Source: a virus
Lineage: Duplodnaviria; Heunggongvirae; Uroviricota; Caudoviricetes
Strand: one strand, 5' to 3'
Length of the DNA stretch: 64,000 nucleotides
IMG/VR virus record: IMGVR_UViG_3300005329_000001
The notes beneath the pieces were generated by a model. The model had not been told where the DNA came from and made no database searches. It saw only the letters and a list, made by a program, of their open reading frames with translations. The position numbers and the translations under genes are program-made. Shown piece after piece: positions 7,624 through 29,535 of the stretch. How positions within the stretch are numbered: position 1 is the first letter of the stretch; each line of letters begins with the position of its first letter.

Positions 7624-9057
7624 ATGTCTGAGTTCGCTCCTGGGATCCCGGCGAAGCACGTTTCACACGATCTTCCGCACGTCGAGGAGCGAAAGACGTG
7701 GGAATTGACTGTTCACGACCATCACGCTGAGAGACGCGGCCGCCACTTCGACCTTCGACTCGGAGATCCAGCTACCGGACACGCCCATTCGTGGGCGATG
7801 CACGCTCAGTGGCCGAAGCCGGGCGAGAAGACCTGGGCCATCCAGCAGCCGACACACACGATGAAGTACATGGACTTCGTCGGGAAGATCGAGGATGGCT
7901 ACGGCAAGGGCGACGTGAAGATGTTCGATCGAGCTAAGACAGAAATCACCAATGCTCGGCCCGGACACGTCAGCTTCAACGTCTACCGAGGCAGCGGGCC
8001 GGAAGAGTACTCCCTCCATCGGGTCGGAGACAAGCAGTGGATTCTGATGAATCGCACGCTGCGGCGGGAGCAGCATCCAGAGCTCCCAACCGACAAGCCC
8101 AAGTACAAGGAAACCAAGCTCTCTGACCCGAAGATCCACACCGACGACTACGTCTTCTCAGCCAAGATCGACGACGCTCACAACCTCTTCTACTTTCCCA
8201 AGGCGGGTGAGAAGATCCGGGTACTTTCGTACCGCGCCGCGAAGAGAAGCAACGGAGGACTGATTGAACACACGCACAAGGTCCCCGGAATCCTGGAGGG
8301 AGTACCTACGCCGGAAGGACTCGGAGGAACGATCCTTCGAGGAGGCTTGTACGCGATTTCACCAAGAAGTGGAATCGCTACGCCGGCAGCCCAACTCGCC
8401 GGCCTTCTCAACTCCGATGTCTGGAAGAGTCGTCAGAAGCAAGAAGAACACGGACAACTCAACTCCGTCCTCTACGACGTCGTCCAGTACAAAGGCCGCA
8501 AGATGGAGAGCGCTCCTTACTCGGAGAAGCTGAAAGTTCTTCGAGAGGTAGAGGCGAAATTGCCGGACTACTTCCACCTGCCTCGCATGGCCTTCACCGA
8601 GACGGCTAAGAAAAAAATGGTGGAAGACATGAAGGAAGGGAAGATGCCGGAGACGAAGGAGGGCATCGTCGCCTGGCATCTTCACCAAGGAACACCACCG
8701 TACAAGGCAAAGTTCTCGACGGACCACGATGTCTACATTCGCGGCTTCTTCCCTGGCGAGGGCAAGTACAAGGACCGTGGGGTGGGAGGCTTCTTCTACT
8801 CCTACGAGCCTGATGGGCCGATCGTTGGCCGCGTCGGAACAGGGCTCAGTGATGCTCAGCGCTCTCACATGCACTCGAGCCCAGAGGTCTACATGGGAAC
8901 AGTGGCGCGCGTGAAGGCGCAGGAGCGGTTCCCGTCTGGAGCTCTGAGAGCTCCCGCCTTCGACGCGTGGCACCTAGATAAAAACGATCCAGAGGCGCTC
9001 GCGTTGGTGAAGCACGCGTCTCTGGATCATGAGCTAGTCTTCTTGTGGGACGTCTAG
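7624..9057 (+). CDS. LigD-type 3'-phosphoesterase (PE) domain fused to an ATP-dependent polynucleotide ligase (nucleotidyltransferase plus OB fold)
   Basis: The N-terminus TVHDHHAERRGRHFDLRLGD matches the LigD-PE HxDxRLE core. Ligase motif I is AKIDDAH (a KxDG variant). Motif III is LYDVVQY, motif IV EGIVAW and motif V YKAKF. This is the only plus-strand gene in the left arm, and its 3' end overlaps the next gene by 4 nt. Confidence 0.75.
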   Translation: MSEFAPGIPAKHVSHDLPHVEERKTWELTVHDHHAERRGRHFDLRLGDPATGHAHSWAMHAQWPKPGEKTWAIQQPTHTMKYMDFVGKIEDGYGKGDVKMFDRAKTEITNARPGHVSFNVYRGSGPEEYSLHRVGDKQWILMNRTLRREQHPELPTDKPKYKETKLSDPKIHTDDYVFSAKIDDAHNLFYFPKAGEKIRVLSYRAAKRSNGGLIEHTHKVPGILEGVPTPEGLGGTILRGGLYAISPRSGIATPAAQLAGLLNSDVWKSRQKQEEHGQLNSVLYDVVQYKGRKMESAPYSEKLKVLREVEAKLPDYFHLPRMAFTETAKKKMVEDMKEGKMPETKEGIVAWHLHQGTPPYKAKFSTDHDVYIRGFFPGEGKYKDRGVGGFFYSYEPDGPIVGRVGTGLSDAQRSHMHSSPEVYMGTVARVKAQERFPSGALRAPAFDAWHLDKNDPEALALVKHASLDHELVFLWDV

Positions 9058-11651: not shown

Positions 11652-12725
11652 TTAGGCCGGTGAGGGCATGTGAAACGGGACGTACTTCTTGGGACCGTAA
11701 TGAACCCGCATGTGGTCCTTGAGCTCTCGGTGGAGAGCCCAGGCGTCTTGCGGGCGAGATGCCGGTGACTTGATGGTGCAGCTTCTCAGGAAGTTCAGAA
11801 AGTAGTTCGGGATATGGCCGGGGTAGACGTCAGCCCCGGGACGGACATCGCCGCCGAGTACGTGGATGATACTCTTGGCAGCCATGTAGATGTCGGTGGC
11901 GGGCGAGACCGGGCGCTTGGCGAAGATTTCGGGCGGGTAGAACGCCTCATACTCCGGGCTGATGGCTTTGATCGTTCCACCCACCTGCACGGAATATGAC
12001 CACCCCACCAGCCGAGCGCCATGGTTGAGGATGTCTTTTTCTTGGGTTCCCGCGTAGACGAGAGCATGTGGAGGAATCACCGCTCCATGCACTCGATTCT
12101 GCTTGTTGTGCAGGTAACCGAGAAACTCCAGCATGCGATTGAACATCCAAACCCCGTGCTCCATCTGCAGCCTCGGATGAGCGGCGCGAACCTTCTCGAG
12201 AGAGTAGTAGCCGTTCAGCCACTGCATGAGGTTCGCCTGTCGGCGAGAGCCGTCGTCGATCTTCAAGCTCCCGATCAACTTCGGCAGGTAGAGATGGTAC
12301 TTGTGGCTTGAGACGTCTGAAGGATAGATCTCCTTCAGGACTTTCGCCTCGTTCTCGAGGAGGTCATTGTCTCGTGGTGATCGCGCGACCTTCAAAGCGA
12401 AGACTTCTCCCGTATCTTCCTTGATGGCCTCGTAGATATCAGCCACCTCTCCAGTGAATGCGTTGCCGTTGATGACGAAGCGGCCCATGCGAGTCTGGAG
12501 AGTGATGGGACCACCAACCGCGCCGCTGTCGTACTTGGCTCTCTTTTGCGGATCACCGAGGACGGCGTAGGCGGCGGCCAACTCTTTGAACTTCTCTTCG
12601 GCGAAGGTGTTCCCGGGGTTGGTGTCCGGGTGGTAGCGCTTGGCGAGAGCCCGGTACGCGCTCTTGATTTGCTCAGCCGTCGCCGTCTTCTTCATGCCAA
12701 GAACGTCATACAAGCTCACCGCCAT
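11652..12725 (-). CDS. J-domain (DnaJ N-terminal) fused to a degenerate Hanks-type protein kinase-like domain (predicted pseudokinase)
   Basis: The J domain [34 protein letters not shown] contains the HPD motif. The kinase-like region has VAIK-like FALKVAR, alpha[11 protein letters not shown], a catalytic loop HGAVIPPHA in which HRD-Asp is replaced by Gly, a degenerate DFG (VGW), APE-like SPE and subdomain [17 protein letters not shown]. Confidence 0.7.
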
Positions 12726-12734
12726 CTGACTCTC

Positions 12735-13127
12735 CTAGAGGGTGTTGTAGTTGAACCGCACCTCGGTGTAGTTATTCCAGATCTCTTTGCGGAAGGCGTC
12801 CGGGCACCAGTCGAGCTCGTCGATCAGGCGAAGGCCTTCTTCAGCATCGGGGATGGTCTCGAGGACCCACAAGAAGAAGCCCACCTTCGATTCATCGTTG
12901 GGCCGTGAATCTTTCGGCGTGCCACGCAGCGCCGCGGCGATCTGCTTTTGAAGCGCGCGAAGCTTCGCCCGGTTCGATTCCTCGAAGAATTCGTTCTTGG
13001 CCTCTTTCAGCTTGTCGATCACATCGCTGTTCTTGTCATTCTCCACCTCCAGTAACTGAAGAAGATCGGTGAAGAGAGAACTCACAGCGTCGTGATTGGT
13101 CTTTTTGACTTTCTTCTTCGACGACAT
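12735..13127 (-). CDS. Hypothetical protein (130 aa)
   Basis: Start at MSSKKKVKK with RBS AAGGAG. High-GC3 codon pattern. The ORF track lists a longer version from 13166. Confidence 0.5.
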   Translation of the reverse strand: MSSKKKVKKTNHDAVSSLFTDLLQLLEVENDKNSDVIDKLKEAKNEFFEESNRAKLRALQKQIAAALRGTPKDSRPNDESKVGFFLWVLETIPDAEEGLRLIDELDWCPDAFRKEIWNNYTEVRFNYNTL

Positions 13128-13150: not shown

Positions 13151-13194
13151 ATAAGACAGGGATCACAAAAGTGATCCGCGACTACTGTCTTATC
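13151..13194. promoter_or_regulatory. Compound nested palindrome (candidate operator or terminator) between the endolysin 3' end and the next gene start
   Basis: ATAAGACAG-GGATCAC-AAAA-GTGATCC-gcgacta-CTGTCTTAT. It has a 9-bp outer inverted repeat and a 7-bp inner inverted repeat. Confidence 0.4.
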
Positions 13195-13210: not shown

Positions 13211-13939
13211 TTACGCGACGAGCGGAGCGAGTGGAGTGATTTGCTGCGTAGCCGTGACGAAGGCGAGAGTGCGCTGCGTCATGATACCGGCATCTCCGTC
13301 GACATCCAGATCCCAGGCGCGCTGGAAGACCATGACGGCTTCGCGGAAGAGCTGCGTGCTGACGTTGCCGTCGATCTCCCCGCCGTACATCTTGAGCTGC
13401 GCCAGATAGCTTTGAATCTGGACTGGCGACATCGAGAAGTCCTGGCCGTAGCGCTCGAGGATACGCATCTCGACCGCGTTGGACCACGTCGCATGGTTGT
13501 TGACGTCGACCTTCGACAGATACTTCTCTGCGTCGTCGCCAAGGTAGTTGAAGTGCCACGCCTCCGACTCGTCCGGTCCCAATCCATCGCGACGATGGCA
13601 GTACCAGCCGTGGGCCTTCATCACCTCGACGATGTCGCCATAGTGGATCTTGAATGCCTTCATGATGGCATAGAGATCGAGATCAACAGCGAGACCGTAT
13701 CCGTGCGGGCTGTAGCCAGGACGCTGTACTCCGCGCTTCACGCGACGGGCCGCAAGCGATGAGTCGGCGGACCGCCACACGTCCGTGTAGATGTAGCCGC
13801 CCGTATCCTTGTCGAGACGCAGCAGTGCTGGTCCAACGTCAGGGGCCAGAAAGCGCATGCGACGGGGAACCTGGCCTTTGTAGTCGGCGTCGTTCGGCCC
13901 CTTGATCGTGGACGGCATCTCGACGAGCTTGAGGATCAT
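13211..13939 (-). CDS. Endolysin: M15-family (VanY / L-Ala-D-Glu or DD-peptidase-like) zinc peptidase with a C-terminal peptidoglycan-binding (PG_binding_1-like) domain
   Basis: Motif SPHGYGLAVDLD (the H...D zinc ligands of M15). The C-terminus LFREAVMVFQRAWDLDVDGDAGIMTQRTL is a PG-binding repeat. The start overlaps the upstream lipoprotein stop (ATGA). Confidence 0.8.
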   Translation of the reverse strand: MILKLVEMPSTIKGPNDADYKGQVPRRMRFLAPDVGPALLRLDKDTGGYIYTDVWRSADSSLAARRVKRGVQRPGYSPHGYGLAVDLDLYAIMKAFKIHYGDIVEVMKAHGWYCHRRDGLGPDESEAWHFNYLGDDAEKYLSKVDVNNHATWSNAVEMRILERYGQDFSMSPVQIQSYLAQLKMYGGEIDGNVSTQLFREAVMVFQRAWDLDVDGDAGIMTQRTLAFVTATQQITPLAPLVA

Positions 13940-14328
13940 TGTGATGCCCTCTTCTTTTGCCTCTTCGCCTTCTTAGCCTGCGCCCCAGGACTGCCGTCCT
14001 CGCCGTCTTGCACATGAACGCAAGCGTGGTCGTCCAAGCACCCTGCGCTCCCGCTGGCGCAGTAGATGCCGTCCGACTCGTCATAGCAGGCAGCGCCTCC
14101 GTGGCAGATTGCGCAGGAGAGCCCGACCTTGGTGAACATGCCGTCGCAGACGTCGGCGTAGGTCACCGAGAGGTTTGCTGGGCAGTTGGGCAAGCCGTAG
14201 ATGTTCGGCTTCATGTCTGCCGGCGATTGAGCCATGTCCTGCTGCACCGGCTGCGGCGGTGTCGGAGGAGGAAGTGGATGACAGCCTCCGCAGCCGGCGA
14301 GCAAGACAAGAATCAGGGAGAAGCGCAT
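13936..14328 (-). CDS. Cys-rich lipoprotein (o-spanin-like) with lipobox LAGC and a Pro-rich linker
   Basis: Product MRFSLILVLLAGCGGC-HPLPPPTPPQPVQQ... about 130 aa. It sits between the C1 peptidase and the endolysin with overlapping stop and start. The ORF track lists a longer version starting at 14577. Confidence 0.6.
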   Translation of the reverse strand: MRFSLILVLLAGCGGCHPLPPPTPPQPVQQDMAQSPADMKPNIYGLPNCPANLSVTYADVCDGMFTKVGLSCAICHGGAACYDESDGIYCASGSAGCLDDHACVHVQDGEDGSPGAQAKKAKRQKKRASQ

Positions 14329-14329
14329 C

Positions 14330-15130
14330 TCAGACCTCCGCCCGGCGAATGGTCCAGCAGTCGGACACCAACGCGCCCTCGCCGCCCATCCAGAACGAAT
14401 AGGGCAGCCAGAAGAAGCCTCCCTCACCCCATCCGGTTCCCCACGAGTTCTGGCACAGCACAGCGCCTCGCTCGGCCCCGCAGACCATGTTGTCGTTGTA
14501 GCCGACTGCCAGGACGGCATGCCCGCCGTCGAACGCCTCTCCAGGCGCTGGCGGCTTGACGACGCCTGTCCGGGCACACTCGTCGCTCATCATGTTGTCC
14601 GGCACCGAGAAGCCGATGACGACGGGGAAGCCCTGGAAGAGGGAGGCCTTCAGGGTGTAGAGGTTCGGGCAGCGGAAGTAGAGAATTGCCTTGTGGTTGA
14701 GCGCCTCCGCCTTCGCTTGCGGTGGTGGGATCACCGAGAACTTCGACGTGTCGTAGGGCCACGTGAGCTCCTGCGGCACGCCATAGGTGGAGAGCGCCTT
14801 CATGACGTCGCGGATTTGCGCTCCACTGTCTTCGTAGAGCGGAGTACCCTCGAGCATCCGCGTCATCGCGTAGATGAACAGGCGAGAGTACAGCGTCGCC
14901 TGCTGCCCCTTGTGTTCCAAGAAGGCGAGCGCGGATGAACTCGAGTTTGCTGTGCAGGAGCCGATCTGGCCCTGGTCCATCACCGGAGGGCATCGATCAC
15001 TAAGGTCGACGGTATCCGGTAGAGCGAGCTCTTCGCTGACCGTCAGCCGGCGATCCCTCGGGTCTGGAGTGTCGGGCTTCCATCCCTTCATGTGCCGGAC
15101 GACGCCGGCGACGGTAGCGAAACGGCTCAC
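14330..15130 (-). CDS. Papain-like cysteine peptidase (C1 family) inside the lysis cassette
   Basis: Catalytic Cys context QGQIGSCTANS, catalytic His GGHAVLAVGY and NSWGTGWGEGGFF (the Asn/Trp oxyanion region). Confidence 0.8.
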   Translation of the reverse strand: MSRFATVAGVVRHMKGWKPDTPDPRDRRLTVSEELALPDTVDLSDRCPPVMDQGQIGSCTANSSSSALAFLEHKGQQATLYSRLFIYAMTRMLEGTPLYEDSGAQIRDVMKALSTYGVPQELTWPYDTSKFSVIPPPQAKAEALNHKAILYFRCPNLYTLKASLFQGFPVVIGFSVPDNMMSDECARTGVVKPPAPGEAFDGGHAVLAVGYNDNMVCGAERGAVLCQNSWGTGWGEGGFFWLPYSFWMGGEGALVSDCWTIRRAEV

Positions 15131-15573
15131 AGCATCACTTCCTTACCGTCCTTGGTCTTGATCTTGAACTTCACCGTCAGGCTGCCGAAGTGCTTCTGCT
15201 TGTAGCTGTCGAGCACGTCGTTCATCGCCTTGCGGCTGGCCATCAGCTCTGGAGTTGCGGTCGGACTGCCGAAGAGCAGGTTCTTCAGCTCTGCGAGGAA
15301 GCAGCCTCCGTCCTTGATACCCATGCCTTCCGCCTGGGCTTCGATGCTGTCCCAGGGAATGTTGTTCGGGTTGGTGCCACCGCTGATCAGGCCCAGCACG
15401 ATCTGAGCGAAGAAGGGCAGCGCATCCTTGATGGTGCTGGTCGTGCAATCGACGATGTCGTGCGCGATGATGCAGCCTGGGTCGTTGGCCTTTGCTTGGT
15501 CCGTCCAGCAGGCGCAACCGGGAAGGCTGATCGAGGCAAGTGCGATTCCGAGCAGTAGAGCCATGGTCTTCAT
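15127..15573 (-). CDS. Secreted protein or lipoprotein (148 aa) of the lysis cassette
   Basis: Signal peptide MKTMALLLGIALASISLPGCAC (a lipobox-like LPGC). RBS AGGAGA. The ORF track lists a longer, Arg-rich upstream extension that I reject. Confidence 0.55.
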   Translation of the reverse strand: MKTMALLLGIALASISLPGCACWTDQAKANDPGCIIAHDIVDCTTSTIKDALPFFAQIVLGLISGGTNPNNIPWDSIEAQAEGMGIKDGGCFLAELKNLLFGSPTATPELMASRKAMNDVLDSYKQKHFGSLTVKFKIKTKDGKEVML

Positions 15574-15586
15574 TGTCTGTCTCCTA

Positions 15587-16023
15587 TCAGGCCGCGGGCT
15601 TGGTTTCCGGCGACATCGCCTGGACTGTATCACGGGCCATCTTGAGGTCGTGGACCTTCGCCTCGATCTTGGTCGACAGGTTCTTCTCGAGGTCGTCCCA
15701 GCCGAGCACCTTCTTGAGCTCCTCGAGCCCCTTCGCACCGTAGTGCGACTTGACCGCGTCGACGGCGGACGTCTTTGCTTCGGCTAGGGTGGTTGCGAGA
15801 TTGTCGTTCGGCTTGATCGAGCTGACGATTCTCTGTTGCGCGTCCTTCACCGCGTCCTCGGCCACCTGATCCAATCGATCGAGTGCCGACAGCACAGTGG
15901 AGTTCTTCGTCTTGTTCTTGATGTAGGTGATTGCGTAGGCGATGAGCGCCGACAGCAGACCACCGACGATAGGAACGAGCAGTGGAATAAGGGACGCTCC
16001 GGCTTGTTCGAGTGCTTGACGCA
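15587..16023 (-). CDS. Putative holin: N-terminal TM helix followed by a long charged cytoplasmic tail
   Basis: Product MRQALEQAGASLIPLLVPIVGGLLSALIAYAITYIKNK then an about 100-aa hydrophilic helical tail. RBS GGAGGA. It is the first gene of the lysis operon. Confidence 0.55.
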
Positions 16024-16167
16024 TCAGGATCCTCCTAATGCGGGAGTCTACTCGATCCATGATCCTGGAGAGAAGAGATGGCTTACCAACGAAAAATTTA
16101 GATCCTGACTGTCATCTCTTCTCACCGACGGAATTCACGTTTAGACCAGAAGCAGGAGGCTCCGGCC

Positions 16168-17972: not shown

Positions 17973-18334
<362 letters not shown>

Positions 18335-28041: not shown

Positions 28042-29511
28042 CTACAGCTTCTCGTTCACACACTCATCAGCACGCTTGTCATCTCTCGCCTCCACGAACA
28101 CTGGATGCCGAAGAGCGTTCGTCTTCTCTCCGTCGGAGATGTACGTCCTGCCTTTGAACTCGCATTTGCAGACGAAGGGGAAGTGCTCCTTCCTGAGCTG
28201 TGCTTGGAACTCGTATGCCATGCCTGACGAGCACTTGGAGATATAGACCAGCTCTCCCTTGGGGTTGTACTGGTACAGAGCCACCGAGCCGACGCCACCG
28301 TGCTCGACCACGGCACCGCTCGGCAGCATCACTTCCTTGTCTCGCTCGTGCTTGCCTGTACCCCACTCACCCATGTTCTTCTTGTCCGGGTCCCAGTACG
28401 CGATGAAGTCGTCCTCGGCCGTCGGCTTGGACTTGGCGCAGCTCGAGGGGCGGTCGGGCTTGCCCTTCAGGCTCCATCCCTTGTCGCCGTAGATCGCGTC
28501 AGGGTCGACGACCACCCAACCCTCGATGCCCAGCTCCTTGGCGTGCTCGAGGGCCTTCTCCGCATTGGGGAAGTTGCAGATCTGAATCTGCTGGATGTAC
28601 TGGGGCACCGATGAGGCGCAGTGCTGGAGGATGATGTTGTAGCGATCGGCTACGCGGACGGTGCGAACCAAGTCTTGCCCGGCATAGAACGGAACGTCCC
28701 ACCAGTAGAAGACAGGCGGGTTCGAGATCTGGTCTTGTAGCGATCGTTCGGTCAGCCCTTTGGTGTACCCCGACGAGATGCGAAGGTCGTCTCTCCCTGT
28801 GACGGGGTTCACGGCGACCAGCTCGACTGCCATCATGGTGCCGTTCGGCAACTGCAACTTCTCGACGTCGGCATAGAGATGGGGGAACCGCAGGGTCCAC
28901 GGCTTCGCCGTCGAGTAGTCGAGAGTGCCGTCGGGCAACTCCAGCGGCTCTTCGGTGTCACTCCACGGACGAGACCGACGAGAGTAGAACCGAATGTTGC
29001 CGTAGAAGTCCTTGATGACCCACATCGCGACGCCGTCGCGCTTGAGCGTATGCAGTGCTTTTCCTGCATTGGTGAGCTCGAGTAGACGCTTGTGGTCTTC
29101 AAGCTCATTCTCGGGCTTGTAGAGGCAAAAGGAGCCCGGCAGGTTGGTTAGCAGGTGGTTGACGCTCTTGTCTTCATTCCGCCGATCGATGTTGTAACCG
29201 GCATCGTATTCGTCATAGCCCTCGAAGTCCCACTTCTTGCGAACGTCTCGCCGAGCTTCTGCGATCGCATCCTGGACGGTCGAGATCTCGTTCTTCTTGC
29301 CCTTGTTCTTGAGCTTGCCCTGGTAGTTGGTCTCTTGCATCGCCCCATCGAGCAGGCCGTGTCGCGTGTAGACGCGATCTTCTTCGACCCAAATCTCCCA
29401 GACGTTTGGGCGATCTCCTCGACCGTTGTGCTGGCGGAATTGCCGGATACGCCCGTCCCACTGGCGCTGCCGCTCGTCGAACGATAGAGATGCCCAACTC
29501 GAGTTATTCAT
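28042..29511 (-). CDS. ATP-dependent polynucleotide (DNA/RNA) ligase, second copy
   Basis: Motif I LKRDGVAM (KxDG). Motif III-like MMAVELVAV. Motif IV EGWVVVD. Motif V SCAKSK. I preferred ATG at 29511 (RBS GGGGAG) over the TTG start at 29535 listed by the ORF track. Confidence 0.7.
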   Translation of the reverse strand: MNNSSWASLSFDERQRQWDGRIRQFRQHNGRGDRPNVWEIWVEEDRVYTRHGLLDGAMQETNYQGKLKNKGKKNEISTVQDAIAEARRDVRKKWDFEGYDEYDAGYNIDRRNEDKSVNHLLTNLPGSFCLYKPENELEDHKRLLELTNAGKALHTLKRDGVAMWVIKDFYGNIRFYSRRSRPWSDTEEPLELPDGTLDYSTAKPWTLRFPHLYADVEKLQLPNGTMMAVELVAVNPVTGRDDLRISSGYTKGLTERSLQDQISNPPVFYWWDVPFYAGQDLVRTVRVADRYNIILQHCASSVPQYIQQIQICNFPNAEKALEHAKELGIEGWVVVDPDAIYGDKGWSLKGKPDRPSSCAKSKPTAEDDFIAYWDPDKKNMGEWGTGKHERDKEVMLPSGAVVEHGGVGSVALYQYNPKGELVYISKCSSGMAYEFQAQLRKEHFPFVCKCEFKGRTYISDGEKTNALRHPVFVEARDDKRADECVNEKL

Positions 29512-29535
29512 TTCATTCTCCCCAGTTAGAGACAA

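Follow-up and report, generated by a model that had tools for sequence, protein, structure and literature searches.

The 64,000-nt stretch of the tailed-phage record IMGVR_UViG_3300005329_000001 that was analysed (hereafter the window) contains a compact cassette of five minus-strand genes (g1 to g5; positions 13211–16024), encoding in this order a holin-like protein, a putative lipoprotein of a new family, a papain-like cysteine peptidase of family C1A, a second, o-spanin-like lipoprotein, and an endolysin. With a probability of about one half, the five genes serve a large tailed phage of a diderm host as its lysis cassette, in which g2, the C1 peptidase gene (g3), and g4 would constitute an accessory lysis module. 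The tight coupling of the five genes, already perceived in an earlier, sequence-only reading of the same DNA (which ended the cassette at 16023, one base off), was borne out by the junctions. Indeed, a 13-nt gap separates g1 from g2, the stop codon of g2 overlaps the GTG start codon of g3 (GTGA), g3 and g4 are 1 nt apart, and g4 and g5 overlap (ATGA). The GTG start of g3 is supported, because its homologues keep the residues before the first internal Met and one of them is also called from Val. On the whole, what the earlier reading had observed was confirmed, and what it had made of these observations was supported only in part.

A xylellain-type cysteine peptidase

The g3 protein matched Peptidase_C1 (PF00112; 50.4 bits, cut-off 20.7) over profile positions 1–202 of 220. 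This was the only family returned by the Pfam scan at E ≤ 0.01, there being no match to CHAP (PF05257) or NlpC/P60 (PF00877), the two families named in the sequence-only reading as the ordinary alternatives. Among solved structures, the best relative was xylellain of Xylella fastidiosa (3OIS; E 6.6e-36, with the alignment beginning at residue 15); cathepsins and papain came next. In an alignment of 18 sequences (g3 and 17 homologues), Q53, C59, H204, N228, and W230 were invariant, the catalytic contexts of g3 being DQGQIGSC, GGHAV, and QNSWG. Residues D20, D23, R25, and D26 were invariant too, and the N-terminal segment GWxPDxPDxRD was conserved. The papain-like identity claimed before is thereby upheld; judged by its sequence, g3 is a genuine C1A peptidase, of the short, xylellain-like bacterial form. 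It has 36 residues ahead of the mature domain, and possesses neither a signal peptide nor an I29 prodomain. A signal peptide was also absent in the 17 aligned homologues, so that the periplasm would be reachable only once the membrane is permeabilised. More than 1,200 relatives were retrieved at E ≤ 1e-10; among the matches listed, nearly all were stand-alone proteins of about 260 amino acids.

Alternatively, g3 may be a second endolysin, cutting stem peptides or cross-bridges of the peptidoglycan, with g2 and g4 as ordinary spanin-type or accessory lipoproteins. Precedents are the endolysin of Alicyclobacillus phage MMB025, in which a C1-like domain is fused to PG_binding_1 and a glycoside hydrolase (GH)-like domain, the split endolysins of Gordonia phages with a separate cysteine-protease-like gene (PMC4982276), and the papain-family N5 domains of LysA (PMC3314691); in addition, some g3 homologues also matched Peptidase_C39_2. 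However, g3, whose closest relatives are xylellain and the cathepsins, bears the complete signature of a C1A protein endopeptidase and lacks a wall-binding domain, many such cassettes already carry an M15 wall peptidase or an amidase, and the strict pairing with a lipoprotein described below is no endolysin trait. Xylellain itself reportedly hydrolyses cathepsin-type peptide substrates. A second endolysin is considered improbable; if g3 were merely another wall peptidase, the gain for endolysin diversity would be modest.

A new family of lipoproteins

The g2 protein carries a signal peptide and the putative lipobox L-P-G-C20, followed by x-C-W. Its Pro at position -2 falls outside the classical pattern [LVI][ASTVI][GAS]C (PROSITE); the lipobox consensus of its family is canonical, with L at -3, S/A/T at -2, and G/S/A at -1. 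No family assignment was obtained in Pfam, PHROGs, or NCBIfam, and tblastn against 50,697 GenBank phages returned no match. A profile search of 1.84 billion representatives yielded a family of 162 clusters, all of which share a hydrophobic segment, the lipobox, C-x-C-[WF], and three further conserved Cys residues (five in total). An AlphaFold2 (AF2) model of g2, with a predicted local distance difference test (pLDDT) score of 81, predicted with confidence a compact bundle of helices, one of them hydrophobic and buried, plus a basic beta-hairpin at the C-terminus; the model had no meaningful structural relative in the PDB or BFVD. A divergent alignment of g2 varied too much to be used in locus scans.

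About half of the family possessed an N-terminal membrane extension of 90 to 160 residues (nearly 400 in P0160; contigs are designated by L numbers, g2 family proteins by P numbers) with one to four transmembrane domains (TMDs). Examples are encoded at L009 4384-4998, L010 4329-4997, L030 4303-4974, and L094 5001-5846, and by P0139-P0216. These extensions formed at least six unrelated sequence clusters. The lipobox of the long forms is internal (residue 60 to 160) and was kept in canonical form, with G/S/A at -1 in 69 of 75 extended proteins. In L013, one such extension occurs as a separate 77-amino-acid TMD gene just 5' of a short g2. When ten long-form proteins and the small TMD genes of related cassettes were scanned against PHROG and Pfam, none could be assigned to the holins, the sole hit being the weak Rz-like match of an L013 protein given below, and the extensions were left without any family. 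The repeated fusion of g2 to unrelated membrane domains argues for a coupling of g2 to membrane, holin-like proteins, and indicates from the sequences that it acts at the membrane, beside such proteins. This suggests that long g2 may be a holin-like/lipoprotein polyprotein that is cut by signal peptidase II.

Conservation and distribution of the g2-C1-g4 block

Conservation was assessed in 13 contigs with enough flanking sequence, namely the window, L004-L010, L013, L014, L030, L094, and the P0160 contig. DNA was at hand for 12 of these. Across the contigs with the block, C1 was 47 to 72% identical to g3. A hidden Markov model (HMM) of g2 found a homologue immediately 5' of the C1 gene in all 13 contigs, with the two genes overlapping by 4 nt or lying no more than 3 nt apart in 12 of them. 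The adjacency persisted where the g2 match weakened to E values of about 1e-5 to 1e-8, including the divergent proteins P0160 (529 amino acids) and P0148 (281 amino acids). Similarly, a locally built g4 HMM placed a g4 homologue directly 3' of C1 in nine of the 12 contigs with DNA, among them L004, L005, L006, L007, L009, L014, L030, and L094. The closest relative of the window, the 207-kb L004, has two tandem g4-like genes at this place (5801-6109 and 6106-6510), the window one.

The surroundings of this block varied. The membrane gene on its 5' side was g1-like in L004-L006, at the position equivalent to that of g1, and an i-spanin-like gene for a type II TMD plus coiled-coil protein in L009, L013, L030, and L094; in L014, such a gene lies 3' of the block, overlapping the g4-like gene by 4 nt. 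The i-spanin-like protein of L013 (131 amino acids) weakly matched the Rz-like spanin PHROG 214 (E 0.0066). The endolysin nearby was of the M15 plus PG_binding_1 type in the window, L004, L005, and L008, of the M15_3 type in L006, L009, and L013, and of the Amidase_2 type in L008 and L014. This variation of the endolysin beside a constant g2-C1-g4 block argues against an endolysin-specific role, and the earlier proposal that the protease processes the endolysin finds no support, as the adjoining endolysin varies or goes unrecognised in the flank. As gene order tells, g2 is an obligate, conserved partner of the protease, and the three genes form a mobile block that occurs in many phages, two features that the sequence-only reading had overlooked.

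A different role that such a block would allow is that of a processing or timing protease for lysis proteins of the phage itself, which by its cut would arm a fragment that acts on the membrane or lift an antiholin-like brake. Its targets would be g2 and/or g4, or the junction between the holin-like N-terminal domain and g2 in the fused forms. The co-inheritance and translational coupling of g2, C1, and g4, the recurrent fusion of g2 to unrelated membrane domains, and the polybasic tail of g4 are all in line with this possibility, which is nevertheless held to be unlikely.

Outside this block, phage C1 genes presented a different picture. Only 14 of the 50,697 GenBank phage records contained any g3 homologue, annotated as part of an endolysin in a single case, that of phage MMB025, in agreement with the earlier statement that a C1 peptidase is uncommon in a lysis cassette. 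A scan of IMG/VR with the g3 protein alone retrieved nothing. An alignment-based scan retrieved 80 C1 loci (39-54% identity), of which 76 lacked g2 and had mixed neighbourhoods, with recurrent neighbour clusters mostly unrelated to lysis. Lone C1 genes occur in the Burkholderia jumbo phage FLC9 and the 595-kb phage LR756511. Furthermore, a scan of genome contigs with the C1 alignment gave one locus, in a Lysobacterales metagenome-assembled genome (L092), without g2. In a neighbour-joining tree of 91 phage C1 domains, the 12 g2-linked ones formed one clade, without intruders in 20 of 30 bootstraps and with at most one in 27 of 30. This single clade argues for one recruitment of C1 into lysis cassettes and would fit a scenario in which C1 was recruited together with g2 and then moved as a block.

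The many lone C1 genes raise the possibility that the block is non-lytic, g3 being a cytoplasmic host-takeover or anti-defence protease, and g2 and g4 superinfection-exclusion or receptor-masking lipoproteins that are merely co-located with late lysis genes. Phage lipoproteins often serve exclusion, and a third lipoprotein gene lies divergently upstream of the cassette. However, the g2-linked C1 clade is separate from the lone C1 domains, and the block lies, with overlapping stops and starts, between holin- or spanin-like and endolysin genes in many divergent phages. Moreover, exclusion genes are usually morons with their own promoters, expressed early or during lysogeny. A non-lytic block is regarded as distinctly improbable.

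Holin-like protein, endolysin, and second lipoprotein

The g1 protein has a single N-terminal TMD (approximately residues 10-33) and a long helical C-terminal domain. It matched four holin PHROGs (E 6e-9 to 7e-3), best among them PHROG 13712 'holin' (E 6.3e-9), and no spanin family; its Pfam match to PF09682 (Holin_LLH, Phage_holin_6_1; 20.6 bits) remained under the cut-off of 24.9. Three Lys residues (K36, K38, and K40) are located after the TMD, from which an N-out/C-in topology is predicted; this suggests an orientation opposite to that of an i-spanin.

The g5 protein matched PG_binding_1 (PF01471; 30 bits, cut-off 23) at residues 174-224 and PHROG 2649 'endolysin' (E 1.7e-5). Its VanY/M15 match (18.7 bits) was under the cut-off of 25, and the LAS/M15 motifs SxHxxGxAxD (S77-D86, SPHGYGLAVD) and ExxH (E126-H129, EAWH) are readable. 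There was no match to PDB sequences, and the sole relative among GenBank phages was found in Virus Rctr197k (40% identity).

The N-terminus of g4 (MRFSLILVLLAGC) contains a short signal peptide and a canonical L-A-G-C lipobox with Cys13, beyond which lie a Pro-rich linker, a domain rich in Cys (CDGxFT..GLxCxxC...YCA), and a terminal polybasic tail. No family was assigned to it in Pfam, PHROGs, or NCBIfam, where neither a spanin PHROG nor a spanin Pfam entry matched, and its AF2 model (pLDDT 39) was unusable. The residue at +2 is Gly in g4 and Ala in g2. In E. coli, the +2 rule sends lipoproteins with such residues to the outer membrane. Both g2 and g4 would be exported, lipid-anchored proteins, residing in the outer membrane if the E. 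coli rule applies.

As regards spanins, g4 is indeed o-spanin-like in form, as had been noticed before, given its lipobox, Pro-rich linker, Cys residues, and location in a lysis cassette. Likewise, the cassette holds no clear type II i-spanin, its sole TMD protein being the holin-like g1 with the predicted N-out/C-in orientation. No TMD-bearing open reading frame (ORF) besides those of the five genes was found in the cassette, no i-spanin gene adjoins g4 in the window, and a search for an embedded o-spanin ORF inside g1 found none. A hydropathy scan detected no C-terminal TMD in either g2 or g4, so that the earlier suggestion of a unimolecular-spanin-like pair of lipoproteins finds no support. 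That g1 and g4 are the i-spanin and o-spanin of an ordinary spanin split by insertion of g2 and g3, with the holin elsewhere in the genome, is very improbable, for although g1 has i-spanin architecture, the g4-like gene of L014 overlaps a TMD plus coiled-coil gene, and lysis genes are often scattered in large phages, g1 matched holin families to the exclusion of spanin families, its charges predict the wrong topology, it has no detectable relation to the i-spanin-like proteins of L009, L013, and L030, and known spanin gene pairs are adjacent, overlapped, or embedded.

Proposed role in lysis

If the g2-C1-g4 block is an accessory lysis module, lysis may proceed as follows. First, the protease would accumulate in the cytoplasm, probably self-blocked by its short N-terminal segment, while g2 and g4 would be exported and lipid-anchored, g2 being tethered to the membrane in the periplasm. 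Second, holin triggering would admit the protease to the periplasm alongside the endolysin. Third, the protease would meet g2 there, and be recruited or activated at the membrane. Lastly, it could cleave proteins of the envelope, for instance those of the surface layer or those that tether the outer membrane to the wall, or g2 and g4, or both groups. Such cleavage would complete the outer membrane's disruption, the step that is performed by the i-spanin/o-spanin pair in classical phages. This role agrees with the lack of an i-spanin in the cassette and with the logic of LysB-like enzymes and non-spanin disruptors.

Self-blocking has its model in xylellain, whose N-terminal segment reportedly blocks the active site. 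Several points weigh against the accessory role. It is from family names at the level of annotation that g1 is given a holin role. In four of the 12 related cassettes (L007, L010, L030, and L094), no endolysin was recognisable within the flank. Most C1 homologues of phages stand alone, away from lysis cassettes, so that the basic role of the family in phages may be a cytoplasmic one, and the oxidising periplasm would be unfavourable to a thiol protease. Compartments, timing, the interaction of g2 with C1, and substrates are inferred here from the genes, and the link between g2 and g3 is an indirect one. The substrate of xylellain-type peptidases is unknown even in bacteria (PMC12090721).

A more far-reaching version, held to be clearly less likely than not, is that the g2-C1-g4 block represents an unrecognised, protease-based system of outer-envelope disruption, a third class beside spanins and disruptin-type peptides. 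In such a system, the holin would release a C1A protease from its store in the cytoplasm, and a lipoprotein dedicated to the task would capture it. This lipoprotein would often be synthesised fused to a holin and then split off at the internal lipobox. Once captured, the protease would sever the protein links by which the wall holds the outer membrane or the surface layer. The literature searched contained no account of the g2 family, the g2-C1-g4 block, or its single-clade distribution. Phages are understood to lyse diderms in three steps, performed by holin, endolysin, and spanin. Spanins are missing from about 15% of phages, and the sole known alternative is the disruptin peptide (bioRxiv 10.1101/515445). 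The conserved, translationally coupled protease-lipoprotein block, found in lysis cassettes of many large environmental phages, is a concrete candidate for another solution. If true, this would provide the first biological role for xylellain-type C1A peptidases and define the unannotated g2 lipoprotein family, and the holin-like/lipoprotein fusions with their internal lipobox would pose an odd biogenesis problem.

Cassette layout and genomic context

The coordinates of the cassette and its flanking elements are listed in Table 1. The ATG of g1 lies 6 nt downstream of its ribosome-binding site. At the other end, 3' of g5, the core stem of the terminator-like hairpin (13177..13160) is followed by a T-rich tail, and an outer inverted repeat (ATAAGACAG / CTGTCTTAT) is visible in the sequence. 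The divergent intergenic region is presumed to contain the cassette promoter; no sigma-70 consensus was detected in it, as expected for late genes of large phages.

Table 1. Features of the lysis cassette and adjoining elements in the window.
Feature	Position	Strand	Basis
g1, holin-like protein, 145 aa	15587..16024	-	PHROG 13712; ribosome-binding site AGGAGG upstream
g2, putative lipoprotein of a new family, 148 aa	15127..15573	-	
g3, xylellain-type C1A cysteine endopeptidase, 266 aa	14330..15130	-	PF00112, PDB 3OIS
g4, o-spanin-like, predicted outer-membrane lipoprotein, 130 aa	13936..14328	-	sequence, local HMM
g5, endolysin, probable LAS/M15-type domain with C-terminal PG_binding_1, 242 aa	13211..13939	-	PG_binding_1, PHROG 2649
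Terminator-like hairpin closing the cassette	13152..13192	-	hairpin scan
Divergent intergenic region between g1 and the plus-strand lipoprotein gene	16025..16167	.	sequence
Divergently transcribed Cys-rich lipoprotein, 172 aa, lipobox L-G-A-C14	16168..16686	+	

The divergently transcribed lipoprotein has homologues in the same position in L004 (3477-3980, minus strand; phmmer 6e-53) and L005 (3494-4003, minus strand; 1e-46), and no family in Pfam, PHROG, or NCBIfam. It contains linker motifs of the 'DMA/PDLA' type, and its signal and linker resemble those of g4. It may or may not be part of the lysis system.

The window as a whole is large-phage-like, encoding ThyX, PurA, two ligase-like proteins, a Baseplate_J protein, and a transfer-messenger RNA (tmRNA), and contigs that carry an identical g2 protein reach 210 kb. 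A full-length tmRNA gene (17974-18334, minus strand; RF00023, 125 bits), with the tag peptide ANDNVRVQSNLSAPLQAAA, is located 2 kb from the cassette. A prophage integrated at this tmRNA gene was considered and rejected, the entire 64-kb window being phage-like and identical g2 proteins occurring on such long contigs. Just 3' of the cassette lies a gene for a fusion of a DnaJ domain with a protein-kinase-like domain (11652-12725, minus strand), which is kept in L004 (7314-8390), L005 (7006-8115), and L008 (7845-8900) and is followed by a gene for a protein of 330-342 amino acids without Pfam match and by one for adenylosuccinate synthetase. Between the terminator and this gene, a 130-amino-acid gene without assigned family (12735-13127, minus strand) has its own ribosome-binding site; it is likely a recent insertion, as this position is empty of it in L004 and L005. 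Further genes of the window encode a protein of 931 amino acids in which a major-vault-protein shoulder domain (PF11978, 1.4e-23) is accompanied by a weak Vault_3 repeat, something unusual in a phage (4351-7146, minus strand), and two ATP-dependent DNA-ligase-like proteins, one with LigD 3'-phosphoesterase and ligase OB domains (7624-9057, plus strand) and one with DNA_ligase_A_M and DNA_ligase_A_C (28042-29535, minus strand).

Comparison with known systems

The closest known relatives of g3, xylellain and other short bacterial C1A peptidases, share with it the family, the short form without I29 prodomain, and the complete Gln/Cys/His/Asn set, and the conserved N-terminal segment of g3 falls within the 3OIS alignment. 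Unlike xylellain, g3 is phage-encoded and located in a lysis cassette, with a dedicated lipoprotein partner that is absent from the one bacterial locus examined (L092) and from the 76 g2-less C1 loci of IMG/VR. A viral C1A protease is also known from baculoviruses, where V-CATH is stored inactive and used late to dissolve host barriers and free the virus. It acts with chitinase in terminal host liquefaction. The likeness is one of analogy only, since V-CATH belongs to a eukaryotic virus, has a classical prodomain, and originates from an insect cathepsin. Its acquisition by baculovirus has been described, and the acquisition of xylellain-type genes by tailed phages has been noted as well, without a function being given (PMC10380794).

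Papain-fold thiol peptidases are present in other phage lysis modules too, namely as CHAP and NlpC/P60 domains, as the N4 and N5 domains of mycobacteriophage LysA (PMC3314691), and as gp29 of Gordonia phage BetterKatz (PMC4982276). Similarly, the 753-amino-acid endolysin of phage MMB025 (PV686781.1; L002 3881-6142) combines a C1-like peptidase (PF00112, 27.9 bits; approximately 32% identity to g3) with Ig-like, Rv2525c GH-like, and PG_binding_1 domains. In contrast to the stand-alone g3, these peptidases are wall-targeted, usually fused to wall-binding or glycosidase domains, and devoid of a lipoprotein partner. Lysis modules with cysteine peptidases are also known from Leptospira prophages (PMC8705779).

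With the lambda Rz/Rz1-type spanins, the cassette has in common that g4 is a small, Cys-containing lipoprotein with a Pro linker, and related cassettes carry type II TMD plus coiled-coil genes, whereas the window has none next to g4. Moreover, typical o-spanins are smaller than g4 and contain far fewer Cys residues. In the unimolecular spanin T1 gp11, there is a C-terminal TMD that is missing from g2 and g4. Finally, the LysB esterase of mycobacteriophages and the 'disruptin' gp28 of phage phiKT follow the same logic as that proposed here, being extra factors that deal with the outermost layer after holin and endolysin (PMC6116114, PMC8309991, bioRxiv 10.1101/515445). The present system would differ from these in using a cysteine endopeptidase and two lipoproteins instead of an esterase or a cationic peptide.

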